From an uncultured Nitrososphaerota archaeon (GTDB lineage: Archaea > Thermoproteota > Nitrososphaeria > Conexivisphaerales > DTJL01), in contig CAWJIE010000004.1 of the NCBI GenBank assembly GCA_963842885.1, forward strand, positions 239,429-263,428: DNA of 24,000 nt, in the 5' to 3' direction. Under the pieces are notes generated by a model. It searched no databases. It saw only the letters and a list, made by a program, of their open reading frames with translations, and was not told the origin of the DNA. The translations under genes and the position numbers were made by a program. Shown here in pieces: positions 334 to 16,866 of this stretch (positions within the stretch are counted from its first letter, which is position 1; each line of letters opens with the position of its first letter).

Positions 334-423
334 TTGTCAAAACCTGTTGACCTGATGCGTTGAGGCGTCTCCTGACGGTCGTCGCGTCTCATCGTATGTG
401 GAAAGGGCATTTGTCAACATTGA
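334..423. promoter_or_regulatory. Repeated TTGTCAA / GTCAAC half-sites in the nrdJ upstream region (candidate operator)
   Basis: TTGTCAA occurs at 334-340 and again at 411-417. GTCAA (336-340) and TTGAC (347-351) form an inverted repeat with a 6-nt spacer. TCAAcaTTGA at 414-423 is a second small palindrome. AT-rich TATA-like stretches (gctaataaagg ~436-446, cttttaagagg ~467-477) lie before the ATG at 494. Confidence 0.25.
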
Positions 424-493: not shown

Positions 494-3073
494 ATGGCGG
501 TCCTTTCGTCAAGAATCAAGTCAGTCCGCAAGCGCGACGGCAGGGTTGTAGCGTATGACAGCAGCAAGATATCTGAGGCCATCTGGAAGGCCATCAAGGC
601 CACCGGTGGCAAGGACAGGTCGACGGCCGTCGAACTCTCGCTCAAGGTCAACGAAATCTTGGAGAAGCGGTTCGGGGAGGGGGCCGTGCCTTCTGTCGAG
701 GATGTGCAGGACGCCGTCGAGCATGTTCTGATAGAGGGAGGATATGCCAAGACCGCCAAGGCCTACATACTCTACCGCCAGAAGAGGGCCGAAATCCGCG
801 AGGAGAAGATGAAGATCCTCGAGAAATCGGACATCGACGAAGTAGACAAGAGCTTCGATAGCAACGCCCTCAAGGTCCTCAGGGCGCGATATCTGCGCAA
901 GGATGAGAACGGCCATGTCTTGGAGTCGCCCAAGGAGCTCTTCATGAGGGTGGCCCTGCACACCGCATTGGCCAGCATCCTCTACGATCCTAGGGTTTTC
1001 GACGTCAAGGGAGGACAGCCCACAAAGGAGGCCCCTGAAAACGTCGATCTCATGGCGTATGCGGACCTGGGCGTGGGAAGGTTCAAACTTAACCAGTTCC
1101 ACGTGGAAGCTCTTCTGCGTGTCTTCAAACGGTTCAACGCCTCCGGGAAGTCCAAGGTGTCGTGGCAGGAGCTGCTGGAGATGTTCAGGAGAGGGGATTT
1201 CACCTCTTACGAGAAAGAGGTGGATGACTACCAGACGCTCATGGTCAGCAAGCATTTCATGCCGAACACTCCGGCATTGGCCAACTTCGGCAACGTGTTG
1301 GGAATGGGCTCGGCCTGCTTCGTACTGGACGTCGCTGACTCCATAGACGACATAATGGAGACGCTGAGGAGCGCGGCGATAATATTCAAGGCTGGAGGAG
1401 GGGTCGGCTACAACTTCTCCAAGCTGAGGCCTGAAGGAGACTTCGTCAAGAGCACGTCGGGCATCGCTTCGGGTCCCGTCAGCTTCATGCGACTGTTCGA
1501 CACCATGACCGAAGTGATCAAGCAGGGAGGGATAAGAAGGGGCGCCAACATGGGCATCCTCAACATCAACCACCCCGATATCGAGAGCTTCATCAAGGCT
1601 AAGGAGGGGAACAAGGCGCTCAGGAACTTCAACATATCCGTCCTCGTACTGGACGATTTCTGGAATTACTACAACAAGAACGAACCGTATCCGCTGGTGA
1701 ACCCCAGGACACATGAAGTGACGCGCTATGTGAACCCCAAGCAGCTCCTCGACATGATCGCTTTCCAGGCGTGGGAGAGCGCCGAGCCGGGGGTCATCTT
1801 CTCCGACAAGGTCAACGAGTTCAACCCCTTCCTCAAGTCGCTCGGCCCCATAGTGACCACCAACCCATGCGGAGAAGTCCTGCTCTACCCCAATGAGTCA
1901 TGCAACCTGGGAAGCATCAACGTGGCGGCGTTCACAAAGGAGGACGACGATGGGAACGTCACCTTGGACTGGGATGGCCTGAGGGACACGGTCGAGATGA
2001 CGACCAAGTTCCTCGACAACGTGATCGACATCAACCACTACCCTCTCCAGGCTATCGAGGATATAACCCTGAAGACGAGGAAGATAGGGCTGGGGGTGAT
2101 GGGGATGGCCGACATGCTCTTCGAGATGGGCGTGGCGTACAACAGCGAGGAAGGGCTCAAGTTCATGGAGCGGTTGATGGAGTTCGTCAACTACCATTCG
2201 AAGAAGGCCTCCATCAAGCTCGCGAAAGAGCGTGGTGTCCTGCCGTCCTTCGAAGATAGCAGCTACAAGGAAGGGAAGTTGCCGTTCGGAGGTTTTGCGG
2301 ACCAGTCCTCCTGGCACTTCGACTGGAAGGGGCTGGCGGAGGAGATAGCGCGAGAGGGAGTGAGGAACGGTTACACCACCGTCATCGCCCCGACGGGGAG
2401 CATCTCGATGATAGCAGGATGCAGCAGCGGCATAGAGCCGGTCTTCGCCCTCGTCTACGAGAAGAATGTATCGATAGGGAGCTTCTACTACGTTGACACT
2501 GCCTTCGAGAAGGCGATGAAGAAGGAGGGTCTCTTCGATGACGACCTCCTCAAGCAGATAGTCTCCAACCACGGCAACATAGGGGGCGTGTTCTACCTGC
2601 CCGAGAAGATCAAACATGTCTACGTCACGGCCATGGATATCGGCCCTGAAGACCACGTCAGGGCGATTGCGGCCTTCCAGAAGTGGGTCGACTCCAGCAT
2701 CTCAAAGACGACAAACCTACCTGCTGAGGCCACCGTGGAAGACGTGAAGAAAGTGTACATGCTCTCCTACGAGCTGGGATGCAAGGACGTCACGGTGTAC
2801 AGGGACAAGTCCATAACGAGCCAGGTCTTGCGCACACCGGCGTCAGGAAAGGAGGAGAAGGGTCCTGGGCTGGCGCCGCAGAAGACCGGTCCCACCCCTC
2901 TCGCCGTGCACGCTCCCGTTTCGTCTCCGCTCCAGACCTTCAACGCCCGTCTGAGCTTGGATGGCAAGAACGGCAGCCTGACCAACTGCCCCTCCTGCAG
3001 CACCAAGTTGGAGTTCAAGGAAGGCTGTGCGACATGCCCCGGCTGTGGCTGGAGCCTGTGCGTCAGCGCCTAG
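494..3073 (+). CDS. nrdJ: Class II (adenosylcobalamin-dependent) ribonucleotide reductase with N-terminal ATP-cone and C-terminal zinc ribbon
   Basis: N-terminal ATP-cone (VRKRDGRVVAYDSSKISEAIWKA...AKAYILYRQKRAE). RNR core with the thiyl-radical loop TTNPCGEVLLYPNESCNLGSINV. The C-terminal CPSC-x12-CPGC tail is as seen in archaeal and Thermotoga class II enzymes. Length 859 aa, no intein-like insertion. Confidence 0.95.
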   Translation: MAVLSSRIKSVRKRDGRVVAYDSSKISEAIWKAIKATGGKDRSTAVELSLKVNEILEKRFGEGAVPSVEDVQDAVEHVLIEGGYAKTAKAYILYRQKRAEIREEKMKILEKSDIDEVDKSFDSNALKVLRARYLRKDENGHVLESPKELFMRVALHTALASILYDPRVFDVKGGQPTKEAPENVDLMAYADLGVGRFKLNQFHVEALLRVFKRFNASGKSKVSWQELLEMFRRGDFTSYEKEVDDYQTLMVSKHFMPNTPALANFGNVLGMGSACFVLDVADSIDDIMETLRSAAIIFKAGGGVGYNFSKLRPEGDFVKSTSGIASGPVSFMRLFDTMTEVIKQGGIRRGANMGILNINHPDIESFIKAKEGNKALRNFNISVLVLDDFWNYYNKNEPYPLVNPRTHEVTRYVNPKQLLDMIAFQAWESAEPGVIFSDKVNEFNPFLKSLGPIVTTNPCGEVLLYPNESCNLGSINVAAFTKEDDDGNVTLDWDGLRDTVEMTTKFLDNVIDINHYPLQAIEDITLKTRKIGLGVMGMADMLFEMGVAYNSEEGLKFMERLMEFVNYHSKKASIKLAKERGVLPSFEDSSYKEGKLPFGGFADQSSWHFDWKGLAEEIAREGVRNGYTTVIAPTGSISMIAGCSSGIEPVFALVYEKNVSIGSFYYVDTAFEKAMKKEGLFDDDLLKQIVSNHGNIGGVFYLPEKIKHVYVTAMDIGPEDHVRAIAAFQKWVDSSISKTTNLPAEATVEDVKKVYMLSYELGCKDVTVYRDKSITSQVLRTPASGKEEKGPGLAPQKTGPTPLAVHAPVSSPLQTFNARLSLDGKNGSLTNCPSCSTKLEFKEGCATCPGCGWSLCVSA

Positions 3074-3075
3074 GG

Positions 3076-5133
3076 TCAGGCAAGGGGAGCAGTAGCCCCA
3101 CCGCATAGGCCGCAGCGCTCAGTTCCAGCGACTTCCTTGTTTCCGCATTTCTTGCATAGAGCTATCAGCGGTCTGATAGTGAAGTGGGGGAGGCGCACAT
3201 TTGCCTTTTCGATGAGCTTGGCAGCGTCGTTCAGGTCGGTGATTGGAAGGGACAGCCGCGCAAGCACTCCTCCGCCGATACTGCCGTCCAAGTCGTCCAG
3301 CCGCGCACCTGTGGACTCCGAATCCAGCTCCTTCGAGTCGATGGAGAAGGCCTGGCCGTACTGCGAAATGCTGAGGTTCTTCATCTTGGCCCTCCCGAAC
3401 CTTTCGACATCGAGCTGGGGGAACCGGATGGCGCTGTCGTCGATGGTCAGCACCAATGCGAACTTCTCATCGCCCTCCTTGCCAGCCGTTTCGAGGTACT
3501 GGTTTGCCGAGATAATCGTCTTCTCCTGCAGCTCCGCCAGCTCCTTGGTGGACGAATCTGGGCTTACCAGCTTGAGCGAATCCTCGAGCCCTGTCAGGTT
3601 CACCCTCAACAGGGGAGACTCGGAGTAGAGGAGGTTGCTCAGGACGTCGAGGGCAGGGAGGAGGCCGTTCTTCATGTTGTTCTGTATGAGGCGGCGCCTC
3701 ACCCGTAGCGCGTTGACGGCGTTTTCGAGTTGCATCGTGACCCGGGCGCGGAAGTATACCTCGTCGTTGTGAGCGTCAAGAGCTATGCGCGGAAGGTTGA
3801 TCGATATAGAGTCCAGGACCACGGGGCCGCCCTTCTTGAAGTCGTCGACGCTCAGGCCCTGGAAGGTCCTCCGGCGGCCACTCCCCTTGGACAGGGATAT
3901 CATCCCGTTGTTCCTCGCTATCTCGGCCAGAGGCCTGTAGGCTGACTTCTCCAGTTTCTCGGAGTTGATGATGGCCAGACCTATCGAAGGTGATGGGGTC
4001 GCCTTGACGTAGTCCAAGTATCCTCTGAAGAGTGAGTTGAAGATGCCGCCGGTCGTCTTCGCTGCGTCCACTTCGAGCTCGACCTTTGGACGCTCCGAGC
4101 CCTCCGGATAGGCATAGGCCATGAGATAGAAGAAGGAAGAGTAACCCTTGGCGTCGAGGTCAAGCTTCTGAGCGAGATCTGTGAAGCCCGCAAGGAAGAT
4201 CTCTCTCCCCGCCTCGCGCGTCAGCAGATAGCTGAGCGACAATAGCTTGGTCAGGTTCTCTTCGTCCGTGTTGTCGTAGCCTTCTCTGGGCGTGTGAGGG
4301 AACTTCGCGCCCAGGCGTGACAGGGAAAGCGACTGGTCGCTGATGTTGATGAACAGAGCATCAGGACGTAGCCCCCAGTAGTTGACGTTGGCGATGTGGA
4401 TGTCGCCTGAAAGATGGGAGTCTACGACGTCTCGGGGCAGCTGTATCAGCATGAGGTACTCTGAGAGCACGGAGCCCGCCGTCTGGTTGAAGACGCCCTC
4501 AAGTCCGTAGGGCCCTTCGCCTAGCTTCTCGAGGTTCTCCGTTACGTCGTAGACGGGCATCCCTAGCCGGCTCAGGCGGTGCCGGTACTCCTCCAGACCC
4601 TCCTCGATCAGGATCGAGTTCACCAGCTCCCTGATCAGGGGGGCCGTGAGGTAGGCAGTCTGAAACTTGTAGATCCTGGATTCGGCTTCGCTGGAGATCC
4701 TCTGGGCCAGCTCCACGGGCATCCCGGCCTCGGTGACAAGAGAATGGATTATCTTGTCGGTGGTGAACTCCTCCATCCTGTGGCGGGAGCTTCGGACGAA
4801 GAGCCTTCCGCTCTCCAGGAGGGCCTGCTCCTCTATCTGCTTCGCCGCGTTCAGGACCAGCCGACCCAGCGTGGTGAGCATGTACTTCCGCTCGGCCCGG
4901 TTCTGAGCTATCAGGTTCTGCCTGAGCAGCTTCCGAAGATGGTAGGCGAACTTGCCCGACTCCTTCTTCGACTTGAATCCGGCCAGCGTCTTCAGCTCTG
5001 AATAAGTCATCGGCCCTTTGGCGTTGAGTATCTTCAGTATCTCAAGGCGGCTGGGGGAAGCGATGACGGAGAAGATAGTCTTCACGCGGCGAATGGAGAC
5101 CTGAGTGCTCATAGAACCACTTATTGACATCAC
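3076..5133 (-). CDS. wHTH (ArsR-like) + ATP-cone + NrdD-like (class III RNR-like) protein lacking catalytic Cys and the glycyl-radical motif; putative nucleotide-sensing regulator
   Basis: The N-terminus SRLEILKILNAKGPMTYSELKTLAG...FAYHLRKLLRQNLI looks like an ArsR/winged-helix domain. LFVRSSRHRMEEFTTDKIIHSLV...LIRELVNSILIEEGLEEYRHR looks like an ATP-cone. The body resembles NrdD (HLSGDIHIANVNYW vs G-IHIHDLD; VVLDSISINLPRIALDA vs the NrdD NLPRIAL motif; C-terminal CKKC-x10-CGLC zinc ribbon). The protein ends 8 aa after the ribbon with no RVxGY motif, and its only four Cys residues are those of the ribbon. Confidence 0.8.
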   Translation of the reverse strand: MMSISGSMSTQVSIRRVKTIFSVIASPSRLEILKILNAKGPMTYSELKTLAGFKSKKESGKFAYHLRKLLRQNLIAQNRAERKYMLTTLGRLVLNAAKQIEEQALLESGRLFVRSSRHRMEEFTTDKIIHSLVTEAGMPVELAQRISSEAESRIYKFQTAYLTAPLIRELVNSILIEEGLEEYRHRLSRLGMPVYDVTENLEKLGEGPYGLEGVFNQTAGSVLSEYLMLIQLPRDVVDSHLSGDIHIANVNYWGLRPDALFINISDQSLSLSRLGAKFPHTPREGYDNTDEENLTKLLSLSYLLTREAGREIFLAGFTDLAQKLDLDAKGYSSFFYLMAYAYPEGSERPKVELEVDAAKTTGGIFNSLFRGYLDYVKATPSPSIGLAIINSEKLEKSAYRPLAEIARNNGMISLSKGSGRRRTFQGLSVDDFKKGGPVVLDSISINLPRIALDAHNDEVYFRARVTMQLENAVNALRVRRRLIQNNMKNGLLPALDVLSNLLYSESPLLRVNLTGLEDSLKLVSPDSSTKELAELQEKTIISANQYLETAGKEGDEKFALVLTIDDSAIRFPQLDVERFGRAKMKNLSISQYGQAFSIDSKELDSESTGARLDDLDGSIGGGVLARLSLPITDLNDAAKLIEKANVRLPHFTIRPLIALCKKCGNKEVAGTERCGLCGGATAPLA

Positions 5134-5186
5134 TTGCTATATCTAGGTCTAAAAAGGTTTACCACTCGGTTGGCTGCTGTGAAGGC

Positions 5187-5264
5187 TGGTGGGGCCGGGC
5201 GGATTTGAACCGCCGATCACCAGCGCCCGAGGCTGGTAGCGTAACCAAGCTAGCCCACGGCCCC
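5187..5264 (-). tRNA. tRNA-Pro (anticodon CGG), CCA encoded
   Basis: The reverse complement reads GGGGCCG-TG-GGCT..CGCT-A-CCAGC-CTCGGGC-GCTGG-TGATC-GGCGG-TTCAAAT-CCGCC-CGGCCCC-A-CCA. It has a 7-bp acceptor stem, 5-bp anticodon and T stems, a 7-nt loop with U33 and G37, and anticodon CGG. The D stem is imperfect. Confidence 0.9.
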
Positions 5265-5390: not shown

Positions 5391-6467
5391 ATGAAGATCG
5401 TCGTCACCGGCATCAGCGGGGCGGGCCGCGGCTCCTACCTGTCAGAGGTCGAGGGCCTAGCCAGGGCGGACGGGAGGAGCATCAGGATCTTCGAGACCGG
5501 CGACATGATGTTCGAGACCGCCAAGAAGCTGGGCATCGAGATACCGGAGGATAAGATCCTTGACCTGTCACCTTCTACGTTGAACTTCCTTAGAACGACC
5601 GTATTCGAGCAGATCATTAGGGAGTCCAAGGAGGTGGAGGACATCGTCATCAGTACCCACGCGTGTTTTCGCTGGAAGAAGCACATCATCCAGGCCTTCG
5701 ACTTCCACTACCTCGACCAGATTCGTCCTGACGTCTATGTTTCCATCATCGACTCCATCACTTCGATAAGGGCCCGGCAGGAAATGACGTCGCAGTGGAG
5801 GGGGCAGCTCTCCATGAAGGACATTCTGGTATGGAGAGACGAAGAGGTGTTCGTGACGAAGTCGATAGCGGACTTTCAGAGGAGGACGTTCTACATCATA
5901 CCCCGCGACGAACCCCCCGAGACGCTATTTCGCCTCCTCTATCGTCCGGGTACAAGGAAGGCGTACCTGAGCTACCCGATGACGCACACCGGAACGGATG
6001 AAGAAGATGTGAAGAGGAAGGACGCTTTCAGGGACAGGTTGCGCGACGCAGGGATGGTCGTGTTCGATCCCATCTCCATAGGGGATGGCGAGCTCTTGGC
6101 TTTCTTGGCCGACGCTAGAAGCAAAGGGGAGAGGACGATAGCCTATTCGAAGGGGAGGACGACCGTGAAGTTCGACATAAAGGAGGCGGAGGAGGTGAGC
6201 GACGACGTCAACGACCAGATCGTCGCCAGGGATTATCAGCTCATCGACCAGAGCGACATGATAGTGGTCTACTACTTTCTCCCCGTCATGTCGCCGGGAG
6301 TGCTTTCCGAGATGACCTATGGTTTCACGAACAAGAAGAACGTCTACGCCGTGTTCAAGGGTCAGGAGTCGCCATTCTTCAGATACTACTCCACCAAGAT
6401 ATTCCAAGACGAAGATGCCCTCCTTGGGTACCTGAAGGAGAAGGCTGGAGGGGAGCCAACCAGCTGA
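5391..6467 (+). CDS. Fusion protein: archaeal adenylate-kinase-like (AdkA/COG2019-like) N-domain with a non-canonical P-loop plus a nucleoside 2-deoxyribosyltransferase-like (NDT/Rcl-like) C-domain
   Basis: The N-terminal half parallels archaeal AdkA (MKIVVTGISGAGRGSY.., FETGDMMFETAKKLG, IVISTHACFRW, VYVSIIDSITSIRARQ). Its Walker A reads GISGAGRGS instead of GxPGxGKS/T. The C-terminal ~170 aa has the NDT-like layout (AYLSYPM.., MVVFDP, QSDMIVVYY, SPGVLSEMTYGF, resembling D-x-GT-x-x-E-x-G-x-A). A TATA-like ataagtttaaaga lies ~30 nt upstream. Confidence 0.65.
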   Translation: MKIVVTGISGAGRGSYLSEVEGLARADGRSIRIFETGDMMFETAKKLGIEIPEDKILDLSPSTLNFLRTTVFEQIIRESKEVEDIVISTHACFRWKKHIIQAFDFHYLDQIRPDVYVSIIDSITSIRARQEMTSQWRGQLSMKDILVWRDEEVFVTKSIADFQRRTFYIIPRDEPPETLFRLLYRPGTRKAYLSYPMTHTGTDEEDVKRKDAFRDRLRDAGMVVFDPISIGDGELLAFLADARSKGERTIAYSKGRTTVKFDIKEAEEVSDDVNDQIVARDYQLIDQSDMIVVYYFLPVMSPGVLSEMTYGFTNKKNVYAVFKGQESPFFRYYSTKIFQDEDALLGYLKEKAGGEPTS

Positions 6468-6481
6468 AGACGACGATCTAC

Positions 6482-6895
6482 GTGGGCGGGCTGCTTATAG
6501 ACGGGGGGAGCATCTTGCTGAAGACGGGAGGAGGGGCTTCCCAACAGTGGCTTCGCCCCCCAGGCAAGTACCTCGAGGGTGATGAGACCCTTGAGATGGC
6601 GGTGTCCAAGGGTTTCAAGGAGGAGACCGGATGGACGTGCGCCGTGAGGGACCTGGCTTACGTCATAGAGTCGTTCAAGGGCGACGGTGAACGGGAACTG
6701 GGCGTCTACTTCCTGGTCGGCGTTCCTTCGCTCAGGGACCGGAACGTCGTGGAGTCAGGGCTCCGATTTGTCTCAGTGGAGGATATGATAACGATGGATG
6801 TGCGCCCTGCCGTCCTGGCTGGGAAGATATTCGCAGACGAAAAGAGGGGCTCGTGTGGATCCGCCACCTACCTAGTCAACCACTGGAATGATTGA
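6482..6895 (+). CDS. Nudix-fold protein with a partly degenerate Nudix box
   Basis: PGKYLEGDETLEMAVSKGFKEETGW aligns to the Nudix box GX5EX7REUXEEXGU, but RE is replaced by KG. The GTG start lies 15 nt after the upstream stop, so co-transcription with 5391..6467 is likely. No other canonical in-frame start occurs in the ~90 nt upstream that I checked. Confidence 0.65.
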   Translation: MGGLLIDGGSILLKTGGGASQQWLRPPGKYLEGDETLEMAVSKGFKEETGWTCAVRDLAYVIESFKGDGERELGVYFLVGVPSLRDRNVVESGLRFVSVEDMITMDVRPAVLAGKIFADEKRGSCGSATYLVNHWND

Positions 6896-8776: not shown

Positions 8777-10786
8777 CTATCGAGGCAGGAGCTCATCCTG
8801 ATGGACAGGGGTCCTCTGAAGTCTCCTTCCGAGGACCTTCTCGAGGGCCCTGATAACGGCTGGGGGGAGGCCTGTCGTGGCCATTTCTCCTACGCCCTTG
8901 ACGCGGAGCGCCTCCGAGGGTGGATGCTCCGCGAACCTAACAACGACGCGAGGGATTGATGATGCCAACGGGAGGCCAGCATCGGCCAAAGTTCCGGTTA
9001 TCAGCTGTCCCTCCTCGCTGTACCAAGACTCCTCAGAGAGCGCCTGCCCGATTCCCTGGGCAGAACCGCCGACGACCTGCGCTTCTGCGTTTTCCTTGTC
9101 AAGCACCTTCCCTATGTCATAGAAGGCGAGACACTCCTCAACCTTCGCCTCCCCTGTTTCGCTCAGGGAAACCCTGACCAGGTTGGCTCCCAGGGAGCTG
9201 ACGGGCTCGTTCATGTAATGAAAGACCTTGACATCGAAATCATGCTTCAGAAGCTCGTCGGGGGAGTTGGCTCCCACCTTCTTCGCCTGTTGCCGGATCT
9301 TCCCCGCAGCCTCGACCAGCGCCGCACTGGCCACTATGGCCGTCCTGCTCCCCCATGTGCCGACTCCTTCGTCCAGCTCATCCGTGTCACACGGCTCCAG
9401 CTTCACCGCTGACTCGGGGATTCCAAGCTCTTCCTTCAGCACCTCTCTGACCATAACCTCGTGTCGCTGCCCGCTCTGGCCGCCTCCGATCCAGACCCTG
9501 ACCGAACCTCCCTTGATGGCTACCCTCGCTGACTCGCCAGGCTGCACGGCTGACAACAATATGAAACAGGAGAATCCAATATCCTTCTCCTTAGCCCGGC
9601 TCCAATACCCCAGCTGCTCAGCCGCCGTAGTGAGGAATGGTTTGAGGGGGTCAACCTTCAGACCCAGCGGCGAGACGAACTGCTTCGAGCTGGCGTTCCT
9701 AAGCCTAATCTCAACTGGGTCCTGCCTCAATTCGTCCGCCAGCAAGTCCATCATCCTCTCTATGAAGAAAGCTGCTTCGGGCCTTCCTGCGCCCCGATAT
9801 GGCCCCAAGGGGACCTTGTTGGTGTAGACCGAGGCGGCATTGATGTACGCCTTCCCTATCGAGTAGGGGCCGGTCAGCAGGTACCCGATGAACATCGGAG
9901 CCGATGAACCCATTCCGCTAGCAAATGCCCCGTTATCGACGAGCACATCCGCCTTGAGCCCGCTGACGTGGCCTTCCCTGTCGGCGAACATCTTCATCCG
10001 AGCCCGCGCCCCCCGACCTTGGTTGGTGGCGAGAAGATGCTCCGACCTGGTCTCCACCCACTTCACTGGCTTTCGCGTCTTAATCGCCGCATAGCAGGCG
10101 ACGGCGTATTCCGGGTAGAGGGAACTCTTGGCCCCGAAAGCACCTCCGGTATCCATCTGGATGACCCTCACGGCTTCCGCGGGAAGCTGCATGACGTCAC
10201 AGATGGCCTCCTTCCATGTGTGAACGGATTGGGTCGAAGCCCATACGGTGAGCCTGGAGCCGTCGTAGCGGGCGACCATGCCGCGGGGCTCCATGGGATT
10301 GGGGGATATCCTGGCATTGACCAGGACGTCCTCCAAGACGATGGGAGAGTCATCGATGAAATCCTCTCCTAGCTGCACTTCGTTGACGATGTTGGACTTG
10401 ATGCTGGGATGGATGGGCTCGAATGTCCTGGCCTCTTCGGGGTTGATAAGGGGCTTGAGCGGCTCGTAGTCGACTTCGACCTCATCCAGGAGGTCCTCGG
10501 CCTCATAAGGGTCCTTCCCCAGGACGGCCGCGACGGACTGGCCGGAGTAGCTTACGTACTCGGTCGGCAGGGCGGGATATGCGACTGACACGGGACCTCC
10601 CCAGGCGCCCTCACCGACAGAGACGATGTTCGCCTTGAACTCCGAGCCGGTTATACCGCCTTTGACCTTCAGGATGCGTGCCCTGGCGTAGGGGCTCCGC
10701 ACCATCTTGAGGTGAAGCATCCCTTCCAGCTTCAGATCGTCGACGAACCTCCCATTCCCCGAAAGGAACTTGTCCGATTCTCTCAA
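8777..10786 (-). CDS. Xanthine dehydrogenase / aerobic CO-dehydrogenase family molybdopterin-binding large subunit (CoxL-like)
   Basis: N-terminal a/b-hammerhead signature GRFVDDLKLEGMLHLKMVRSPYARARI. Molybdopterin-binding regions follow (GGAFGAKS, YRGAGRPEAAFFIERMMD, GQSGQRHEV, GVGEMATTG). No form-I CODH VAYRCSFR loop was seen, so the substrate is unknown. Confidence 0.92.
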   Translation of the reverse strand: MRESDKFLSGNGRFVDDLKLEGMLHLKMVRSPYARARILKVKGGITGSEFKANIVSVGEGAWGGPVSVAYPALPTEYVSYSGQSVAAVLGKDPYEAEDLLDEVEVDYEPLKPLINPEEARTFEPIHPSIKSNIVNEVQLGEDFIDDSPIVLEDVLVNARISPNPMEPRGMVARYDGSRLTVWASTQSVHTWKEAICDVMQLPAEAVRVIQMDTGGAFGAKSSLYPEYAVACYAAIKTRKPVKWVETRSEHLLATNQGRGARARMKMFADREGHVSGLKADVLVDNGAFASGMGSSAPMFIGYLLTGPYSIGKAYINAASVYTNKVPLGPYRGAGRPEAAFFIERMMDLLADELRQDPVEIRLRNASSKQFVSPLGLKVDPLKPFLTTAAEQLGYWSRAKEKDIGFSCFILLSAVQPGESARVAIKGGSVRVWIGGGQSGQRHEVMVREVLKEELGIPESAVKLEPCDTDELDEGVGTWGSRTAIVASAALVEAAGKIRQQAKKVGANSPDELLKHDFDVKVFHYMNEPVSSLGANLVRVSLSETGEAKVEECLAFYDIGKVLDKENAEAQVVGGSAQGIGQALSEESWYSEEGQLITGTLADAGLPLASSIPRVVVRFAEHPPSEALRVKGVGEMATTGLPPAVIRALEKVLGRRLQRTPVHQDELLPR

Positions 10787-11094
10787 GCTAGGCCTTCACC
10801 CCCGAGTGGGCGACGGGGTGAGAGAGGTCCAGCGTTCCCCTGCGCCGACGATCGACTTCTTTCGGCATCTTCTCACGGATGGAACGTCCCAATGACGTGT
10901 AGCGCTCTGCCAACGTCTTCTCGTGTTGGCCTTGGAGGGTAGTTAAGGATTAGCGCGTTCTCGATGTCGCGCATCTCAGCCGCCAGGATGCTGGGCGACG
11001 TCAGGAAACCCGTATTAGACCATCGGCCGGAGGGAAGCAGGATAGGATTTGGAGTTCGGAGGGATCCGAGCTCATACATGCGAAGAGGGAGGAG

Positions 11095-11502
11095 GTGTTC
11101 GATTTCATGGTTGACGCTCGGCATTTCTCCTCTGGGATCCCCGACATTCAGTCCGTCAGGGTCCTCAGCCCCGACAGGTTCAGTGTGACGGCTAAGCTCG
11201 GCATATCCGTCATCAGGTCGACGTTCGACATCGATTTCGAAGCTTCCGAGAAGACGGCGCCGTCACACGTCAAGCTGCTCGGACATGGCATCAGCGGAGG
11301 CAGCGCTTTGGACCTCGAATTGACGATCGACCTGGAAGATCGAAGCCCGTACACGGCTCTGAAGTGGATTGCCGTGGTCAGAGTTTCAGGGACCTTGGCC
11401 GCTCTGGGACAGAGGGTGCTCAGCGCTGTCGCCGACAGATTTGTGAGGGAGGTCTTCGGCAAGATACGTGCCGAGCTTGAAACCCCTGGCACGCAGGTCT
11501 GA
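11095..11502 (+). CDS. coxG: CoxG-like SRPBCC-fold protein (carbon monoxide dehydrogenase subunit G family); start uncertain
   Basis: FDFMVDARHFSSGIPDIQSVRVLSPDRFSVTAKL...ALKWIAVVRVSGTLAALGQRVLSAVADRFVREVFGKIRAEL matches the CoxG pattern (V-W-x-F-L-x-D, C-I-P-G-x-E-S-V, V-x-G-K-L-A-x-L-G). Similarity seems to continue upstream (EGSELIHAKREEV) where no canonical in-frame start exists. The coordinates use the first GTG. Confidence 0.7.
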   Translation: MFDFMVDARHFSSGIPDIQSVRVLSPDRFSVTAKLGISVIRSTFDIDFEASEKTAPSHVKLLGHGISGGSALDLELTIDLEDRSPYTALKWIAVVRVSGTLAALGQRVLSAVADRFVREVFGKIRAELETPGTQV

Positions 11503-11532
11503 GATAGGGCCTTCAGGAGTCCGATCGGCATC

Positions 11533-12030
11533 CTAATCGTCGGCAGGCTTCCGGGATCTGGAGCCTCCACCGCTCTCCCGTACTGCAGAGGCCTGAATGA
11601 TTGCTTGGACTATATTCGCGTATCCTGTGCACCGGCAGATGTTGCCCGAGATGGCCTTCCGGACCGAGTCCTCGTCCAGCTTGGAGTTCCTTGACAGCAA
11701 GTTGTATGAAGTCATCAGTAGTCCGGGGGTGCAGTAGCCGCACTGCACGGCAAGGCACTCGGAGAACGCCTTCTGCAGCGGATGAAAGCCCTCGTCGGTT
11801 GCAAGGCCCTCCGCGGTCAGGATGGAGGAGCCGTCGGCCTGGACGCCCAGCAGCAGACAGGACTTCACGGCGTTTCCGTCCAATATCACAGTGCAGGCGC
11901 CGCACCTCCCCTCATCGCACCCTTGATGCACGCTGAGGAACCCAAGGTCTCGGAGCACGTCCACAAGCAGGGTTCGGGGCGATGGGTCGACGTCTTGGAG
12001 CTTGCCGTTGACGGTGAGCTTGATATGCAT
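11533..12030 (-). CDS. coxS: [2Fe-2S]-binding small subunit of the XDH/CoxS family
   Basis: Plant-type ferredoxin motif CDEGRCGACTV plus the second cluster motif QCGYCTPG...CRCTGY. 165 aa, typical size. Confidence 0.95.
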   Translation of the reverse strand: MHIKLTVNGKLQDVDPSPRTLLVDVLRDLGFLSVHQGCDEGRCGACTVILDGNAVKSCLLLGVQADGSSILTAEGLATDEGFHPLQKAFSECLAVQCGYCTPGLLMTSYNLLSRNSKLDEDSVRKAISGNICRCTGYANIVQAIIQASAVRESGGGSRSRKPADD

Positions 12031-12899
12031 TCAGACGCCTCCAAATGCAGAAAGGAGGGCGCGCCTGGCGGCCAGGGATGCCATCTCGCGCCGGTAGGCC
12101 GCCCGGACCCTTGAATCAACCAGGGGTTCCCGAAGGTTGGAGCCAACGGCCTTGGCGGCTTCGAGGAGCGTCTCCTTTGACAACGTCTTGCCTACCAAGA
12201 TGCCCTCGGCTTCGGTCAGCCGGACCGGGATGGCCGTGGCGGCACCGACGACTATGGTGGCCGATTCGCAGACGGAGGCGTGAGCTTCCAGCAACACCGC
12301 CGCGATGGCCGTCGCGAAGCTTCCTCCCTGGCCGTGAATGACTTCGTAGCCCCAGGGAATCCCAAAGGGCTTCGGAATCCTGATCTCGGTGAGTATCTCG
12401 TCGGGGCCAAAGCATTTGTGAACATCTCCTTGAAGAAATCGGCCGCCCTAATCACCCTCTTTCCCCCAGCACCGGTGGCGACCAGCTCGGCGCCCAAGGC
12501 AACAACGGCAGGCAAGTAGTGGGCGGCGGGATCGGCGTGGCAGAGGCTGCCACCAATGGTGCCCCTGTTTCTGACCTGATAGTCGCCGATGTCCTCCGCA
12601 GCCTTCGCCAGCATGGGACATCGAGCCCTTACGACTTCAGATGTGGAGAGCTCGTGATGCGTGGTCAGGGCTCCTATGGAGATCCCATCTTGGTTTTCCC
12701 TTACGTACGACAGCTTCCCCCTGAGGTGCTTGCCGATATCGACCAACATGGCGGGGCTGACCAGCCTGAACCTCATCAAGGGCAACAGGCTCTGGCCGCC
12801 TGCGATCACCTTCGCCCGGTCCGGATTCTCGACGATCAGGTGAAGCGCGTCTTCGATGGTGGCTGGCGCATAATACTCAAAGGCCTTTGGATAGGGCAT
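12031..12899 (-). pseudogene. coxM: FAD-binding medium subunit of the XDH/CoxM family, split by a 1-nt frame disruption near 12403-12406
   Basis: The N-part (12252..12899) carries AGGQSLLP and RNRGTIGGSL, then FFKEMFTNALAP. The expected continuation DEILTEIRIPKPFGIPWGYEVIHGQGGSFATAIAAVLLEA...VRAAYRREMASLAARRALL is in another frame (ending 12031). One extra C in the CCCC run (gene strand) would give LAPDEILTEI in a single frame. Confidence 0.85.
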
Positions 12900-13306: not shown

Positions 13307-13401
13307 TGGTAGCGAGGAGTGGATTTGAACCACTGCTCTGCGGGTGTCTCAACCATCGGTTTATGAGCCCGCCGGGATAGGCCTGGCTTCCCCACCTCGC
13401 T
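13307..13401 (-). tRNA. Initiator-type tRNA-Met (CAU) with a 16-nt intron at the canonical 37/38 position, CCA encoded
   Basis: The reverse complement reads AGCGAGG-TG-GGGA-AGCCAGGCCTA-TCCC-G-GCGGG-CTCATA[AACCGATGGTTGAGAC]A-CCCGC-AGAGC-AGTGG-TTCAAAT-CCACT-CCTCGCT-A-CCA. The A1:U72 pair and G29-31:C39-41 are initiator hallmarks. The intron (13346-13361) forms a bulge-helix-bulge: central helix CUCA/UGAG, 3-nt bulges UA|A and AC|A, inner helix ACC/GGU. Confidence 0.9.
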
Positions 13402-13460: not shown

Positions 13461-14768
13461 TCAGAGTTCGTAGGGCAGCGTCGCAGGCTTGCTAAGATGG
13501 CGTCGAGCTCGGGGCGGAACGGCGTAGAGTCCAGGAGAGATGGCTCTCTCGAGCTTCACCTTGATTGGCTGCAACGACATGGACTTGAATTTGCAGGCTG
13601 GGCACTGGAATCCCTTCCCCTTGCCTTCCGATTTCATGGTCTTCCCGCACTCGGGGCAGCCGGGATTCCTCGTGACCTCCAAGGTGGTCAGGGAGAGGAC
13701 CTCCATCTTCTCGACGTTGATGGTCAGAGGGGTGACCGGTTTCTCCTTGACGCCGCCATAGACTCTCACAGCATCGCCGGGCACAAGCGCCCTGCCGACG
13801 TCTCTGAAGCCCCTAGTGGGCTCGTAGATGGCACAGTCGACGGAGCCGCTGTCGTCTTTTATCCTGAATATCAGGTGGCCGCCGCGGATGACATGGGGCT
13901 TGGCGCACACGATGCCGGAGACCTTGACGGTGGTCAGAGGCGTTATCTTCCCAGCCTTGGCGTCGGAGATGTGGGCGTCGGTGGCTTGATTGGTTTCGTA
14001 AATCTGGAAGCGTTCGACGGGCTGAAGTGGCTTCACCAAGCTGAAGGCTCGCTCCAGATAGTGCGGTTTGAATGCTCGAATGCCGAAGTAGACCGGGCAG
14101 GGAGTGTGCGGCATTATCCTGACCTCGCCGGTGTTCTTGTCCAGGTTGTCGAAGGTGAAGGGGTAGGTGGCGTCGTTCATGGCAACTATGGACCCCAGCT
14201 CCATCTCTCTCCGGGTCCCGACGAACTGGGGGGTGCGATAGGCTATCAGCTCGTATGTGCGGCCGTATTCCAACCGGTTGCCTATCGCGGCTAGGGCGCC
14301 GATGATGCCGCGACCCAGCTTGAACTTGTGGACCTCTATTCCCAGCGAGTCCGCCACCGCGTCCGCATCCTCGATGGTCATCATCTCCTTGACCACCCGA
14401 GAGGAGAACTCGCCGAGGGAGACTGGTATCTCTTCGCCCACGAAGAAGGCGACGCCAGACTCCGTCCCTTCGTCGTCCAGCATGGCCATCTCCTTGACGC
14501 GTTTGAGGACCAGCTCCTTGATCTGGGGCATGATGGCCGGAGAGGCGCGGAACTTGAACGACAGGGCGGCGTTCCCTCTAGTCTTGAAGGGGCAGTTGGG
14601 GTTCAGTCGGATGAGCCGGGGGAAGCCCTCCAATTCCAGGCCGAAAGTGCTTTCAATCTCGTCGATGAGGACGGCCGCGAGATAAGTCGTGCACATGCCT
14701 TCGGAGGAGTCTGTGTCGTCCAGACCGACATGGAGGAGGGGAAGCAGGGTCTCCTTCTTTGACGCCAA
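13461..14768 (-). CDS. tiaS: tRNA(Ile2) 2-agmatinylcytidine synthetase
   Basis: The N-terminal LHVGLDDTDSSEGMCTTYLAAVL is the TiaS signature. 435 aa with an OB-like middle region and a C-terminal zinc ribbon CPECGKTMKSEGKGKGFQCPACK. TTG start. Confidence 0.92.
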   Translation of the reverse strand: MASKKETLLPLLHVGLDDTDSSEGMCTTYLAAVLIDEIESTFGLELEGFPRLIRLNPNCPFKTRGNAALSFKFRASPAIMPQIKELVLKRVKEMAMLDDEGTESGVAFFVGEEIPVSLGEFSSRVVKEMMTIEDADAVADSLGIEVHKFKLGRGIIGALAAIGNRLEYGRTYELIAYRTPQFVGTRREMELGSIVAMNDATYPFTFDNLDKNTGEVRIMPHTPCPVYFGIRAFKPHYLERAFSLVKPLQPVERFQIYETNQATDAHISDAKAGKITPLTTVKVSGIVCAKPHVIRGGHLIFRIKDDSGSVDCAIYEPTRGFRDVGRALVPGDAVRVYGGVKEKPVTPLTINVEKMEVLSLTTLEVTRNPGCPECGKTMKSEGKGKGFQCPACKFKSMSLQPIKVKLERAISPGLYAVPPRARRHLSKPATLPYEL

Positions 14769-14790
14769 GGGTCGATTCTCCCTCTCCAGT

Positions 14791-14803
14791 ATTGATTATT
14801 TGA
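14791..14803 (-). promoter_or_regulatory. AT-rich TATA-like element upstream of tiaS
   Basis: The minus strand reads TCAAATAATCAAT, 23-35 nt upstream of the TTG start at 14768. This fits an archaeal TATA box driving a leaderless or short-leader mRNA. It is a position and composition argument only. Confidence 0.25.
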
Positions 14804-15105
14804 GCATATGGTTGGGGGAAAAGTCGTCTAACCCTCCCTTATCTGCGTCCGCCCACGCCAGCGCTCCCGGCTTGGTCGATTTCATGCATGTCCAGCGACG
14901 GAGGCTTTGAACTAGCGGTGTGATGATGGGAAAGTGCGGCTGAGGGCTACCAGTGTCATTCATGCTCTCCTCTCAGTGCCTTGGGCTGTCTTGAGCGGAA
15001 GGTTGGCATCCCAAACTTACGTAGATTGGTCAGGAGTGAAAGCTTCCGAGTCATCCTGGTCTTGATCCTCTGCTGTCATGGCGAGACTTGTATGCCGGCC
15101 AAGGC

Positions 15106-15342
15106 GACACTCTTTGACACCCCTTACGGGAGGATTTGCGGCCCACCAGACGACGGGCTGATGATTTCTTTGGCTCGTTAACAGGCTGTCTTGACACCCT
15201 CCCCACGGCACTCAGAGCCTGTATAGTGAGTTTTTTGAGGTGTCAAAAGGTGTCGACAGGGTGCCGGCCAAAGTGTCGACACGGTGTCGACACCCCGTCA
15301 ACAGGGTGTCGCGCAAGAGCCGACACCCGCCATGACGGTGTC
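15106..15342. repeat. Dense array of GTGTC/GACAC half-sites, including tandem GTGTCGACAC palindromes
   Basis: GACAC starts at 15106, 15116, 15193, 15278, 15289 and 15322. GTGTC starts at 15240, 15250, 15273, 15284, 15306 and 15338. GTGTCGACAC occurs at 15273-15282 and 15284-15293 (tandem, 1-nt gap). A 12-bp perfect palindrome GGTGTCGACACC spans 15283-15294. GGGTGTCG (15304-15311) and CGACACCC (15321-15328) form an inverted repeat with a 9-nt spacer. Many copies are extended to RGGGTGTC. Confidence 0.85.
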
Positions 15343-15609
15343 AGACCAAGGGCAGGGGAAGGCCGGGTCCTTCCAAGTCCGACAAATAGGACTCGAACCC
15401 AATTCGGTACGAACCCCTTCGGGCCCACCACTCGGATCCCAATCCTGAATCAGAGTTAGTTCCTATCCTCCTGACGCCAGTCAAATCCCCATTTCTGCTG
15501 GGGGGTTCTTGCTTGGCCTCTCGGTCGACATCGGAGCCAGTTATGCAACCTTTTCATCTATGCTGATTGAGTCTAATGAATAGAAGGGAAAACTCGTCAG
15601 AACAGGGGC

Positions 15610-15843
15610 CTACTCTTCGACCACTATCATCGTCAGAGTGGAGCGTACCTTCTCCAGTCGCCTTATGTGCCAGGTGATGGTCTCCTTGACCTTCTCCATC
15701 GTGTCGGCTTCGACCTTCAAGATGAGATCGTACACACCGTACACCACGTAGACCTCCGTGACGTTTGTTATCTTCTTCACTTCGGCGACGAGCTCCTCCT
15801 CCGCGCCCAAATCGGCGTTAATCAGGACGAAAGCCTTTGGCAA
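15610..15843 (-). CDS. Stand-alone Lrp/AsnC-type ligand-binding (RAM) domain protein, no DNA-binding domain
   Basis: A 77-aa protein, AFVLINADLGAEEELVAEVKKITNVTEVYVVYGVYDLILKVEADTMEKVKETI..IRRLEKVRSTLTMIV. It shows the beta-alpha-beta-beta-alpha-beta RAM pattern of archaeal stand-alone RAM-domain proteins. Confidence 0.8.
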   Translation of the reverse strand: MPKAFVLINADLGAEEELVAEVKKITNVTEVYVVYGVYDLILKVEADTMEKVKETITWHIRRLEKVRSTLTMIVVEE

Positions 15844-16450: not shown

Positions 16451-16461
16451 CCTTTAAATCG

Positions 16462-16866
16462 TGGGGAACGTCGGAGCTAGCCCGAGGATGTGAGCTGGTG
16501 GGCAGGTTCGGGGCGAATAGCCCTGAGGAAGCTCCTCCCTCCGTGCAGGAGACGCGGCGTTGAGAGACGCAGCGGGAGACCGCTGGCTCTGGAACAGAAA
16601 CGACACCCGCGCCGGGAATGCTATGAAGGCAGAGATGCCGGAGAAGTCCCGGATGAGGGATGAAACGGCCACCCCGCGTGGAGCAAGGTCAAATGGGGCT
16701 GATGACATGCTCACTGCTGGAAGCCCGGGTAGACCACTAAGCTGAATCCCGCCTAGAACAGAAGGAGGGCTATGGCCAGGAAACATCCTCACTTCAAACC
16801 CCCACTGATGATTAGGAAGGGAGCGGCGGTCGTTATACTGCCTGCTGAGCTTTCTGACGACCATCG
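16462..16866 (+). ncRNA. rnpB: RNase P RNA (archaeal type), ends approximate
   Basis: CR-I-like GAGGAAGCUCCUCC (16525-16538) pairs with a CR-V-like ACAGAAGGAGGGCUAU (16758-16773) to form P4 (UCCUCC/GGAGGG plus AAG/CU). AGGGAUGAAACGGCC and GAGCAAGGUCAAAUGGGG resemble the conserved AGGGUGAAACGG and GCAAGGCCAAAUAGGGG elements. P1 can form between GUCGGAGCU (16470-16478) and AGCUUUCUGAC (16848-16858). The only long ORF here (16454..16864, minus) is not protein-like. Confidence 0.85.

Follow-up and report, generated by a model that had tools for sequence, protein, structure and literature searches.

A 24-kb window of contig CAWJIE010000004.1, from an uncultured Nitrososphaeria archaeon ("the window" meaning here this whole stretch of 24,000 nucleotides), carries on its minus strand a gene for a protein in which a predicted winged helix-turn-helix (wHTH) domain precedes an ATP-cone-like domain and a body resembling NrdD, the anaerobic (class III) ribonucleotide reductase (RNR). 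With moderate confidence we propose that this regulator candidate is a one-component transcription factor derived from a duplicated class III RNR, that it would control both the neighboring class II RNR gene, nrdJ, and its own gene through palindromic sites, and that it would sense nucleotides. The comparative evidence, namely the NrdD-homologous body, the conserved adjacency to RNR genes and a palindrome present in both promoters, supports the regulator interpretation put forward in a first-pass annotation of this DNA. The gene and the parts of its product are located as follows.

3076–5133, minus strand: gene for the wHTH/ATP-cone-like/NrdD-like protein; longest open reading frame (ORF) 685 aa, with a GTG start at 5133
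4846–5079, minus strand: winged helix-turn-helix, residues 19–96 of the 685-aa ORF; Pfam DUF7347 and HTH_20
4564–4821, minus strand: ATP-cone-like domain, residues about 105–190; a beta-hairpin plus four helices (DSSP of the AlphaFold2 (AF2) model)
3169–4563, minus strand: NrdD-like alpha/beta-barrel body, residues about 191–655; Pfam NRDD, Foldseek and profile matches
3103–3156, minus strand: C-terminal NrdD-type zinc ribbon CKKC-x10-CGLC, residues 660–677

The stop codon of the gene occupies 3076–3078. A database protein (P0001) with 100% identity to the ORF product starts at the ATG at 5112 and is 678 aa long, and this ATG is the probable start of the protein, in preference to the GTG. Pfam profile searches bear out the three-part architecture (wHTH, cone-like domain, and NrdD body with ribbon) that had been read from the sequence alone. 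DUF7347 matches residues 19–96 at 42.6 bits (E 7e-11) and HTH_20 matches the same N-terminal domain at 33.4 bits against a cutoff of 27; HTH_5 reaches 16 bits, under its cutoff, and the NCBIfam model HTH_metalloreg matches weakly (28.1 against a cutoff of 55). The NRDD model covers residues 433–678 with 64.5 bits against a cutoff of 26.2. The AF2 model has a mean predicted local distance difference test (pLDDT) score of 77, and about 90 in the body.

The homology to NrdD, with its ten-stranded alpha/beta barrel, extends over the whole body, including the middle region, as had been claimed. The family profile matches the NrdD of T. maritima over residues 104–630 with an E value of 1.9e-39, and of the PDB structures that Foldseek matches to the AF2 model the top 36 are without exception NrdD, with E values as low as 1e-17. 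They include the T. maritima, S. thermophilus, phage T4 and P. copri enzymes; class I/II RNRs and further glycyl-radical enzymes come lower in the list. The residues of the reductase reaction were followed in an alignment (A2) bridged by a genuine NrdD, P0251, which has the motifs NAMGCRTRL and SRITGYL. At the position of the thiyl-radical Cys of true NrdDs (NAMGCRTRL; C290 of the T4 enzyme, in the GCR motif of the finger loop) the regulator candidate has a Leu (FQGLSV); the second catalytic Cys and the Asn of the TGN motif are missing, the NxN flap is deleted, and the chain stops ahead of the glycyl-radical loop. The protein has a total of four Cys, at positions 660, 663, 674 and 677, all belonging to the CKKC-x10-CGLC ribbon and all invariant across the family (alignments A1 and A2); eight residues (GGATAPLA) follow the ribbon before the stop. 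No glycyl-radical motif of the form R[VIT][CST]GY was found in any frame downstream of the gene or across the whole window, and no radical-SAM/NrdG-like ORF was found among the ORFs of the 24-kb window. The earlier statements that the protein lacks a thiyl-radical Cys, that it lacks a glycyl-radical domain, and that the window holds no nrdG activase were therefore all correct, and no hidden exon or frame supplies such a domain. On the NrdD equivalog model TIGR02487 the protein scores 51.7 bits where the cutoff is 326, and the other NCBIfam NrdD models also stay far under their cutoffs. Together, the missing catalytic residues, the missing glycyl-radical loop and the low equivalog scores argue that the protein cannot be a reductase. 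Judged by these alignments, it is by descent an NrdD paralogue without four of the features by which the enzyme is defined. Public records call it either an 'ArsR family transcriptional regulator' or an 'anaerobic ribonucleoside-triphosphate reductase'; the latter name is wrong for the Nitrososphaeria members, of which hundreds of entries are misannotated in this way, and it could mislead inferences on anaerobic metabolism.

The protein is widespread. Relatives occur in at least 534 species-representative genomes and form 322 clusters at 50% identity (E<1e-30), with length and domain order conserved across the family. The listed loci with a lineage name are almost all from Nitrososphaeria, including Nitrosopumilaceae, Nitrososphaera and Nitrosotalea, and the nearest relatives of the window are annotated as Conexivisphaerales. 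Compared with three close relatives (L001–L003), the ratio of nonsynonymous to synonymous substitution rates (dN/dS) is 0.06–0.08 for the whole protein, and it differs among the parts together with the mean identity within the family:

Winged helix: mean family identity 81%, dN/dS about 0.01
Cone: mean family identity 79%, dN/dS about 0.01
Linker and first core helix: mean family identity 64%, dN/dS about 0.01
NrdD-like core: mean family identity 37%, dN/dS 0.08–0.11

Judging from these ratios, the whole protein is under purifying selection and is not a relic, and the constraint is strongest on the module made of the wHTH and the cone. The presumed recognition helix, KKESGKFAYHLRKL, is unchanged in all 12 deep clusters sampled. 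We found no description of the family in the literature; most papers in subscription journals lay outside the search, so that an earlier mention is possible.

Ribonucleotide reductase neighbors and a shared palindrome

The gene that lies tail to tail with the regulator candidate encodes the RNR of the locus:

494–3073, plus strand: nrdJ, class II (B12-dependent) RNR; TIGR02504 NrdJ_Z 713 bits against a cutoff of 400

The two genes are convergent, nrdJ ending at 3073 and the regulator-candidate gene at 3076, and the gap of 2 nt between their stop codons is as first described; a terminator scan of this junction found none. That the neighborhood is conserved was established with tblastn on 80 loci, 74 of which had enough flanking sequence. 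A class II RNR gene adjoins the regulator-candidate gene in every one of these 74 informative Nitrososphaeria loci, and the three neighbors sampled pass the NrdJ_Z cutoff. In loci of the Conexivisphaerales type nrdJ is convergent and a few bases away, whereas in Nitrososphaerales loci it is co-directional, with a spacer of about 50–700 nt (mostly 150–350). The adjacency is thus retained in two gene arrangements, which argues for a functional link rather than mere inherited synteny.

Beyond these loci there is a sister subfamily of longer proteins (740–780 aa), whose named members are annotated as Bathyarchaeota and Thorarchaeota and, in one case, as a Dormibacteraeota bacterium, most members having no name. 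These long-tailed proteins share the architecture and carry in addition a degenerate glycyl-radical tail, such as SRSLAKYLPL (one member retains SRISGML), and they likewise lack the thiyl Cys. Among the 52 metagenomic loci that extend at least 1.5 kb past the gene, 38 have an RNR gene directly following it; this is mostly a true nrdD, often trailed by pyrB and pyrI, with a thioredoxin-like gene also present in L084 and L089; one Bathyarchaeota locus has nrdJ in place of nrdD. Other family members adjoin pyrBI, and further ones lie among genes for nucleoside phosphorylases, DeoC, phosphopentomutase-like proteins and dCMP deaminases. The family tracks nucleotide metabolism, chiefly whichever RNR the host uses.

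Some features of these neighbors are recorded here in their own right. The NrdJ of the window has its own canonical ATP-cone (Pfam, 75.5 bits) and a cone is also present in the NrdJ of L068, whereas the adjacent NrdJ proteins of some Nitrososphaerales lineages, those of L008 (10239–12542) and L032 (10414–12816), give no ATP-cone match, their NrdJ_Z match beginning within the first 40 residues. Transcriptional control by the neighboring gene may count for more where the enzyme lacks an allosteric on/off control of its own. The C-terminus of the window NrdJ (about 2960–3070, plus strand) has a Cys-rich ribbon (CPSCSTKLEFKEGCATCPGCGWSLC) with a weak IBR match, so that both convergent genes end in zinc-ribbon-like tails. 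In the long-tailed loci L091–L146 the spacer between the gene and nrdD is typically 435–650 nt, unusually long for archaea; neither a motif nor an RNA element was identified there.

Inspection of the regions upstream of nrdJ and of the regulator-candidate gene first suggested the inverted repeat GTCAA-N6-TTGAC, a palindrome of 16 bp. Its occurrence in the surveyed loci is given below.

Upstream of nrdJ (n = 74): 33 regions with at most 1 mismatch; 58% with at most 2 mismatches
Upstream of the regulator-candidate gene (n = 78): 26 regions with at most 1 mismatch; 78% with at most 2 mismatches
Other promoter-like regions of the same loci (n = 405): 0 regions with at most 1 mismatch; 6.4% with at most 2 mismatches

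The signal peaks sharply at the 6-nt spacer. An unbiased enumeration of dyads, pairing every 5-mer with its reverse complement at spacers of 0–12 (13,312 dyads), ranks GTCAA-N6-TTGAC first, with 59 regions; the runners-up, with at most 25 each, are in part the same motif shifted or changed by one base (TGTCA-N8, GTTAA-N6). When the loci are clustered at 60% protein identity into deep lineages, the strict motif is found upstream of nrdJ in 6 of 11 and upstream of the regulator-candidate gene in 4 of 12. The candidate sites of the window, which lie inside the two regions that the first-pass annotation had named (311–493 and 5134–5186), are these:

336–351, strand not assigned: distal candidate operator GTCAAAACCTGTTGAC, a perfect palindrome upstream of nrdJ
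413–428, strand not assigned: proximal candidate operator GTCAACATTGATTAAC, 1 mismatch, ending 10 nt ahead of the TATA-like TAATAAA (438–444)
385–392, plus strand: CGTCTCAT element between the two nrdJ operators, with a similar copy also at 366–373
5147–5162, minus strand: GTAAACCTTTTTAGAC, a weak candidate site for autoregulation (2 mismatches) that overlaps TTTTTAG (5149–5155), the TATA-like element of the gene's own promoter

The distal and proximal sites are 77 bp apart, centre to centre, and both fall within the 183-nt spacer before nrdJ, where a second TATA-like element, TTTTAAG, lies at 468–474. Across the whole window there are three matches with at most 1 mismatch against 0.52 expected, two of them in the nrdJ leader; the third, at 15242–15257, was considered as a regulon member and dropped, as it belongs to an unrelated GGTGTCGACA repeat cluster. 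Pairs of sites at 72–77 bp recur in L001, L007, L015, L024, L033, L046 and L052, and pairs at 21 bp in eight more loci, so that paired boxes are found in 16 loci altogether. At the regulator-candidate gene itself, a GTCAA half-site (5124–5128) lies near the predicted transcription start, and many Nitrososphaerales have as their own-promoter site GTTAAATACTTTTGAC, a palindrome that encloses the TATA box.

A tRNA-Pro(CGG) gene (5187–5264, minus strand) lies about 55 nt upstream of the regulator-candidate ORF and leaves a very short promoter region. About 15 other loci have T-arm-like k-mers (GGATTTGAACC and GGTTCAAATCC) ahead of the gene, which suggests that a tRNA gene stands in this place there too.

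A second conserved element accompanies the palindrome. The sequence CG[CT][CT]TCAT(G) lies exactly 7 nt past the distal operator, in constant orientation, in 27 Nitrososphaerales loci (L007–L077), and it occurs in 26 of 74 nrdJ leaders, in 5 of 405 control promoters and in none of the 78 promoters of the regulator-candidate gene. The window has a similar sequence, GCGTCTCAT, between its operators, at an offset that differs from that in Nitrososphaerales. The element may extend the operator, bind a second factor or act at the RNA level. A reading of CGYYTCATG as the start of a short upstream ORF was given up, since by eye the ensuing peptides differ between loci.

Proposed mechanism and rival explanations

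We propose that the wHTH replaced the outer of the two ATP-cones of an NrdD, and that the inner cone, the barrel and the ribbon were retained. Of the two cones in the NrdD P0251, the outer (VVKRSG) is canonical; the cone of the regulator candidate corresponds to the inner one (IRTSEKEFESF), and its wHTH stands where P0251 has the outer cone. The protein would dimerize as NrdD does, which could present two winged helices to the 16-bp palindrome. Its cone and NrdD-derived body would together form a sensor, with (deoxy)nucleotides as the most plausible ligands, and a ligand-dependent repositioning or oligomerization of the N-terminal module would alter the occupancy of the operator and match the transcription of nrdJ to the supply of deoxynucleoside triphosphates, as NrdR does in bacteria. 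In true NrdDs, ATP and dATP reposition or dimerize the cones and can alter the oligomeric state (PMC12662201, PMC11226230), and such a movement would be a plausible lever for a wHTH attached in front of the cone. From the sequence comparisons we infer that the protein would bind the palindrome, that it would do so as a dimer, and that its ligand would be a nucleotide. Repression of its own gene is likely, given that the own-promoter site overlaps the TATA box. Archaeal repressors that act by occluding TBP/TFB are well established. The sites at nrdJ lie upstream of the TATA box, and the sign of control could there be either activation or repression by bridging of the two sites.

A broader proposal can be made, if more tentatively, across the subfamilies, from Nitrososphaeria to the lineages annotated as Bathyarchaeota and Thorarchaeota. 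The family may be the missing archaeal counterpart of NrdR, with retained allosteric sites of the RNR (the inner cone and possibly the specificity site) reading the nucleotide pools, and with GTCAA-N6-TTGAC controlling the RNR of the host, nrdD in anaerobes and nrdJ in Nitrososphaeria.

The nature of the signal turns on the cone. The first-pass annotation had assigned an ATP-cone, which needs correcting to a non-canonical one: a cone-type fold is predicted, with a marginal Pfam match, but the canonical motif is not there. In the MAFFT alignment, to which the comparison at the level of residues is restricted because neither phmmer nor the profile aligned the cone, canonical cones read V-x-K-R-D-G and the regulator candidate reads VRSSRHRMEEF, with the F...KI part of the signature kept and K-R-D-G replaced by S-S-R-H. 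A phmmer search of the cone/linker segment alone against PDB sequences gave no match, and the family profile reaches the NrdD structures without aligning the cone. Homologues exceed the Pfam ATP-cone cutoff with up to 46.4 bits, and despite its non-canonical motif the cone is nearly invariant across orders. ATP or dATP is a plausible signal for the regulator candidate, one that the sequence does not yet support.

Several observations weigh against the proposal that the protein is a nucleotide-sensing regulator of nrdJ and of itself. The winged helix is modeled by AF2 with low confidence (pLDDT 31–54). The Pfam ATP-cone model (PF03477) scores 25.1 bits on residues 112–183, marginally under its cutoff of 25.8. 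The Lys-Arg pair of V-x-K-R-D-G contacts the triphosphate in canonical cones such as that of E. coli NrdA, and these phosphate-binding residues are Ser-Ser here and Thr-Ser in relatives; the inner cone is, moreover, the inactive one in some multi-cone RNRs. On the DNA side, 5 of the 11 deep lineages have no strict N6 palindrome upstream of nrdJ, among them Nitrosopumilaceae and Nitrososphaera, which have just N5 variants or half-sites beside the TATA box, so that the conservation of the motif is broad and not universal. The loci are phylogenetically related, and their counts overstate the number of independent observations. A scan of the window at up to 2 mismatches gives 10 matches against 7.0 expected, so that the own-promoter site has no significance by itself and draws its support from the data across loci. 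For the long-tailed subfamily, the de novo dyad enumeration gave AT-rich patterns and no shared motif. The Nitrososphaeria palindrome was not found near the genes in L081 or L084, and GAAGC-N4-GCTTC, considered as a long-tailed operator, was rejected because it is coding sequence of the nrdD ATP-cone and an artefact of the window boundary.

The cone bears most directly on an alternative that we regard as unlikely, though serious: the protein would still be a transcription factor for nrdJ and for itself, with its body and cone serving as a dimerization scaffold or sensing something other than nucleotides (redox state, or a protein partner such as NrdJ). A cone that has lost its Lys-Arg pair and falls short of the Pfam cutoff would suit such a role, as would the loss of the NxN flap and the active-site residues, a core just 37% identical across the family, and the reduced core of shorter relatives. 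A passive linker or scaffold is not, however, usually constrained as strongly as the cone and the helix that follows it, whose conservation is second only to that of the wHTH (dN/dS about 0.01); the core, too, is still under purifying selection, and the family clusters with genes for RNR, pyrBI, nucleoside phosphorylases, DeoC and dCMP deaminase.

Less probable still is that the palindrome belongs to another regulator and that the protein serves ribonucleotide reduction in some other way, for example by regulating or chaperoning NrdJ or by binding RNA. The link between protein and motif is correlative only, the CGYYTCAT element at its fixed 7-nt offset hints at extra factors, and some lineages have the invariant helix without the strict motif. 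A motif shared by a gene's own promoter and that of nrdJ is, on the other hand, the usual signature of an autoregulated local regulator, and its absence from all 405 other promoters of the same loci (at up to 1 mismatch) points the same way; a 16-bp dyad fits a dimeric wHTH protein, and the wHTH is the most conserved part of this one.

That the protein is still an enzyme, whether a class III-type reductase or a member of the glycyl-radical family with other catalytic residues or with a radical partner in trans, seems very improbable. It does have the complete NrdD fold with the zinc ribbon, and some public records name it a reductase; set against this are the confinement of all Cys to the ribbon, the absence of a glycyl-radical loop in any frame, of the NxN flap, of the Asn and of an activase in the window, an equivalog score of 51.7 bits where 326 are required, and hosts that include aerobic ammonia oxidizers already carrying NrdJ. 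A decaying pseudogene or an artefact of assembly or annotation, which the loss of all catalytic residues could suggest, is refuted by an ORF that is intact in hundreds of genomes with length and domain order conserved and an overall dN/dS of 0.06–0.08, and its probability is negligible.

Other genes of the window

Past the tRNA-Pro gene and divergent from the regulator-candidate gene, an ORF at 5391–6467 (plus strand) encodes an adenylate-kinase-like AAA_17 domain fused to one that resembles nucleoside 2-deoxyribosyltransferases, and it is followed by a NUDIX hydrolase gene (6482–6895, plus strand). The two genes have the look of nucleotide metabolism; tblastn finds them only in the closest relatives, L001–L003. 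Farther along lies a cluster of the xanthine/CO-dehydrogenase family (8777–12899, minus strand, and 11095–11502, plus strand), with molybdopterin large, [2Fe-2S] and FAD subunits and a CoxG-like gene.

The tRNA-Met(CAT) call at 13307–13401 (minus strand) is 95 nt long, which makes an intron probable; a gene for TiaS (agmatidine synthase) lies just beyond it, at 13461–14768 on the same strand. The stretch 14769–15609, about 840 nt, has no ORF and holds the cluster of GGTGTCGACA-like repeats, especially at 15240–15320. A tRNA-like T-arm is seen at 15360–15440 (minus strand), in a stretch where ARAGORN and Rfam call no gene. By eye, the product of a 77-aa ORF at 15610–15843 (minus strand) resembles the ligand-binding (RAM) domain of Lrp/AsnC proteins standing on its own. 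The Bathyarchaeota locus L085 has a pair of comparable small genes (AsnC_trans_reg) immediately upstream of its regulator-like gene. The archaeal RNase P RNA is found at 16490–16784 (plus strand, 190 bits), and a 136-aa ORF on the opposite strand (16454–16864) is probably spurious because it overlaps this RNA. A NAC domain gene is also present in the window, which, with this gene, the RNase P RNA and TiaS, is archaeal in content.

Comparison with known systems

How archaea control RNR, the gatekeeper of DNA synthesis, is largely unknown, and NrdR, the RNR-specific repressor of bacteria, is rare among them (PMC9110341). The present family contains a definite candidate for this role, with operator and targets predicted and a hypothesis on the ligand that can be tested, and thereby offers an explanation, open to direct test, of how RNR may be controlled in many archaea. 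Its hosts include globally abundant ammonia-oxidizing archaea. If the proposal is true, this would be the first known case of an RNR scaffold reused as a transcription factor, the allosteric machinery having outlived catalysis; we know of no earlier report of an RNR in that role.

The closest kin of the regulator candidate is NrdD itself. The cone, the barrel and the C-terminal zinc ribbon are homologous, and the two proteins have in common the motifs YLTAPLIRE, NLPR, GLLP and GG as well as the four ribbon Cys. Unlike NrdD, the regulator candidate has gained a wHTH at its N-terminus and lost the thiyl Cys, the second Cys, the NxN flap, the Asn and the glycyl-radical loop; and while NrdD has NrdG as its partner, the 24 kb around the regulator candidate hold no NrdG.

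The resemblance to the ArsR/SmtB family is limited to the N-terminal domain, which shares with it a winged helix of the HTH_5/HTH_20 type, HTH_20 scoring over its cutoff. ArsR/SmtB proteins are small stand-alone dimers with a metal site, whereas the regulator candidate is a multidomain protein of 678 aa with no Cys in residues 1–659 and no metal-site residues in its N-terminal domain, and the best Pfam match of its wHTH is the archaeal DUF7347 and not ArsR proper.

In its design the protein joins a group of regulators that combine an enzyme-derived sensor with a winged helix, such as the Nudix-like NrtR (PMC2330246), the aminotransferase-like MocR (PMC5320631) and the archaeal riboflavin kinase RbkR, which is also found in Thaumarchaeota (PMC5397151). 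In all of them a duplicated enzyme of a pathway is the effector sensor of a local regulator of that pathway, and the locus studied here shows the same set of features at the level of sequence: a fused enzyme paralogue, an adjacent pathway gene, and a candidate operator shared by the target promoter and its own. The NrtR, RbkR and MocR families were first recognized through the comparative genomics of operator motifs, the same route as was taken here. One difference is that RbkR is still catalytically active, while the regulator candidate cannot be.

In function, the closest system is NrdR. In both proteins an ATP-cone-type domain is joined to a DNA-binding element, and in the hosts of both the expression of RNR must follow the nucleotide pools (PMC9110341, PMC12176259, PMC12051234). 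Common to the loci of both are paired palindromic 16-bp boxes upstream of RNR genes, spaced at near whole helical turns (for NrdR: PMC9110341, PMC12176259, PMC12051234), but the sequences of the boxes are unrelated, which makes the likeness one of functional analogy and not of membership. The DNA-binding part is a zinc ribbon in NrdR and a predicted N-terminal winged helix here, and the NCBIfam search of the regulator candidate gave no match to an NrdR model; its one ribbon is the C-terminal ribbon of NrdD type. It is also 4–5 times larger than NrdR, carries a whole dead NrdD barrel, and is homologous to NrdR in the cone only. The first-pass annotation had stated that no archaeal equivalent of NrdR is known; as a statement of absence this does not stand, NrdR being rare rather than absent in archaea (PMC9110341, PMC2795772). 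The comparison as a whole points to an enzyme-derived one-component regulator that would be functionally analogous to NrdR, yet is not an NrdR.

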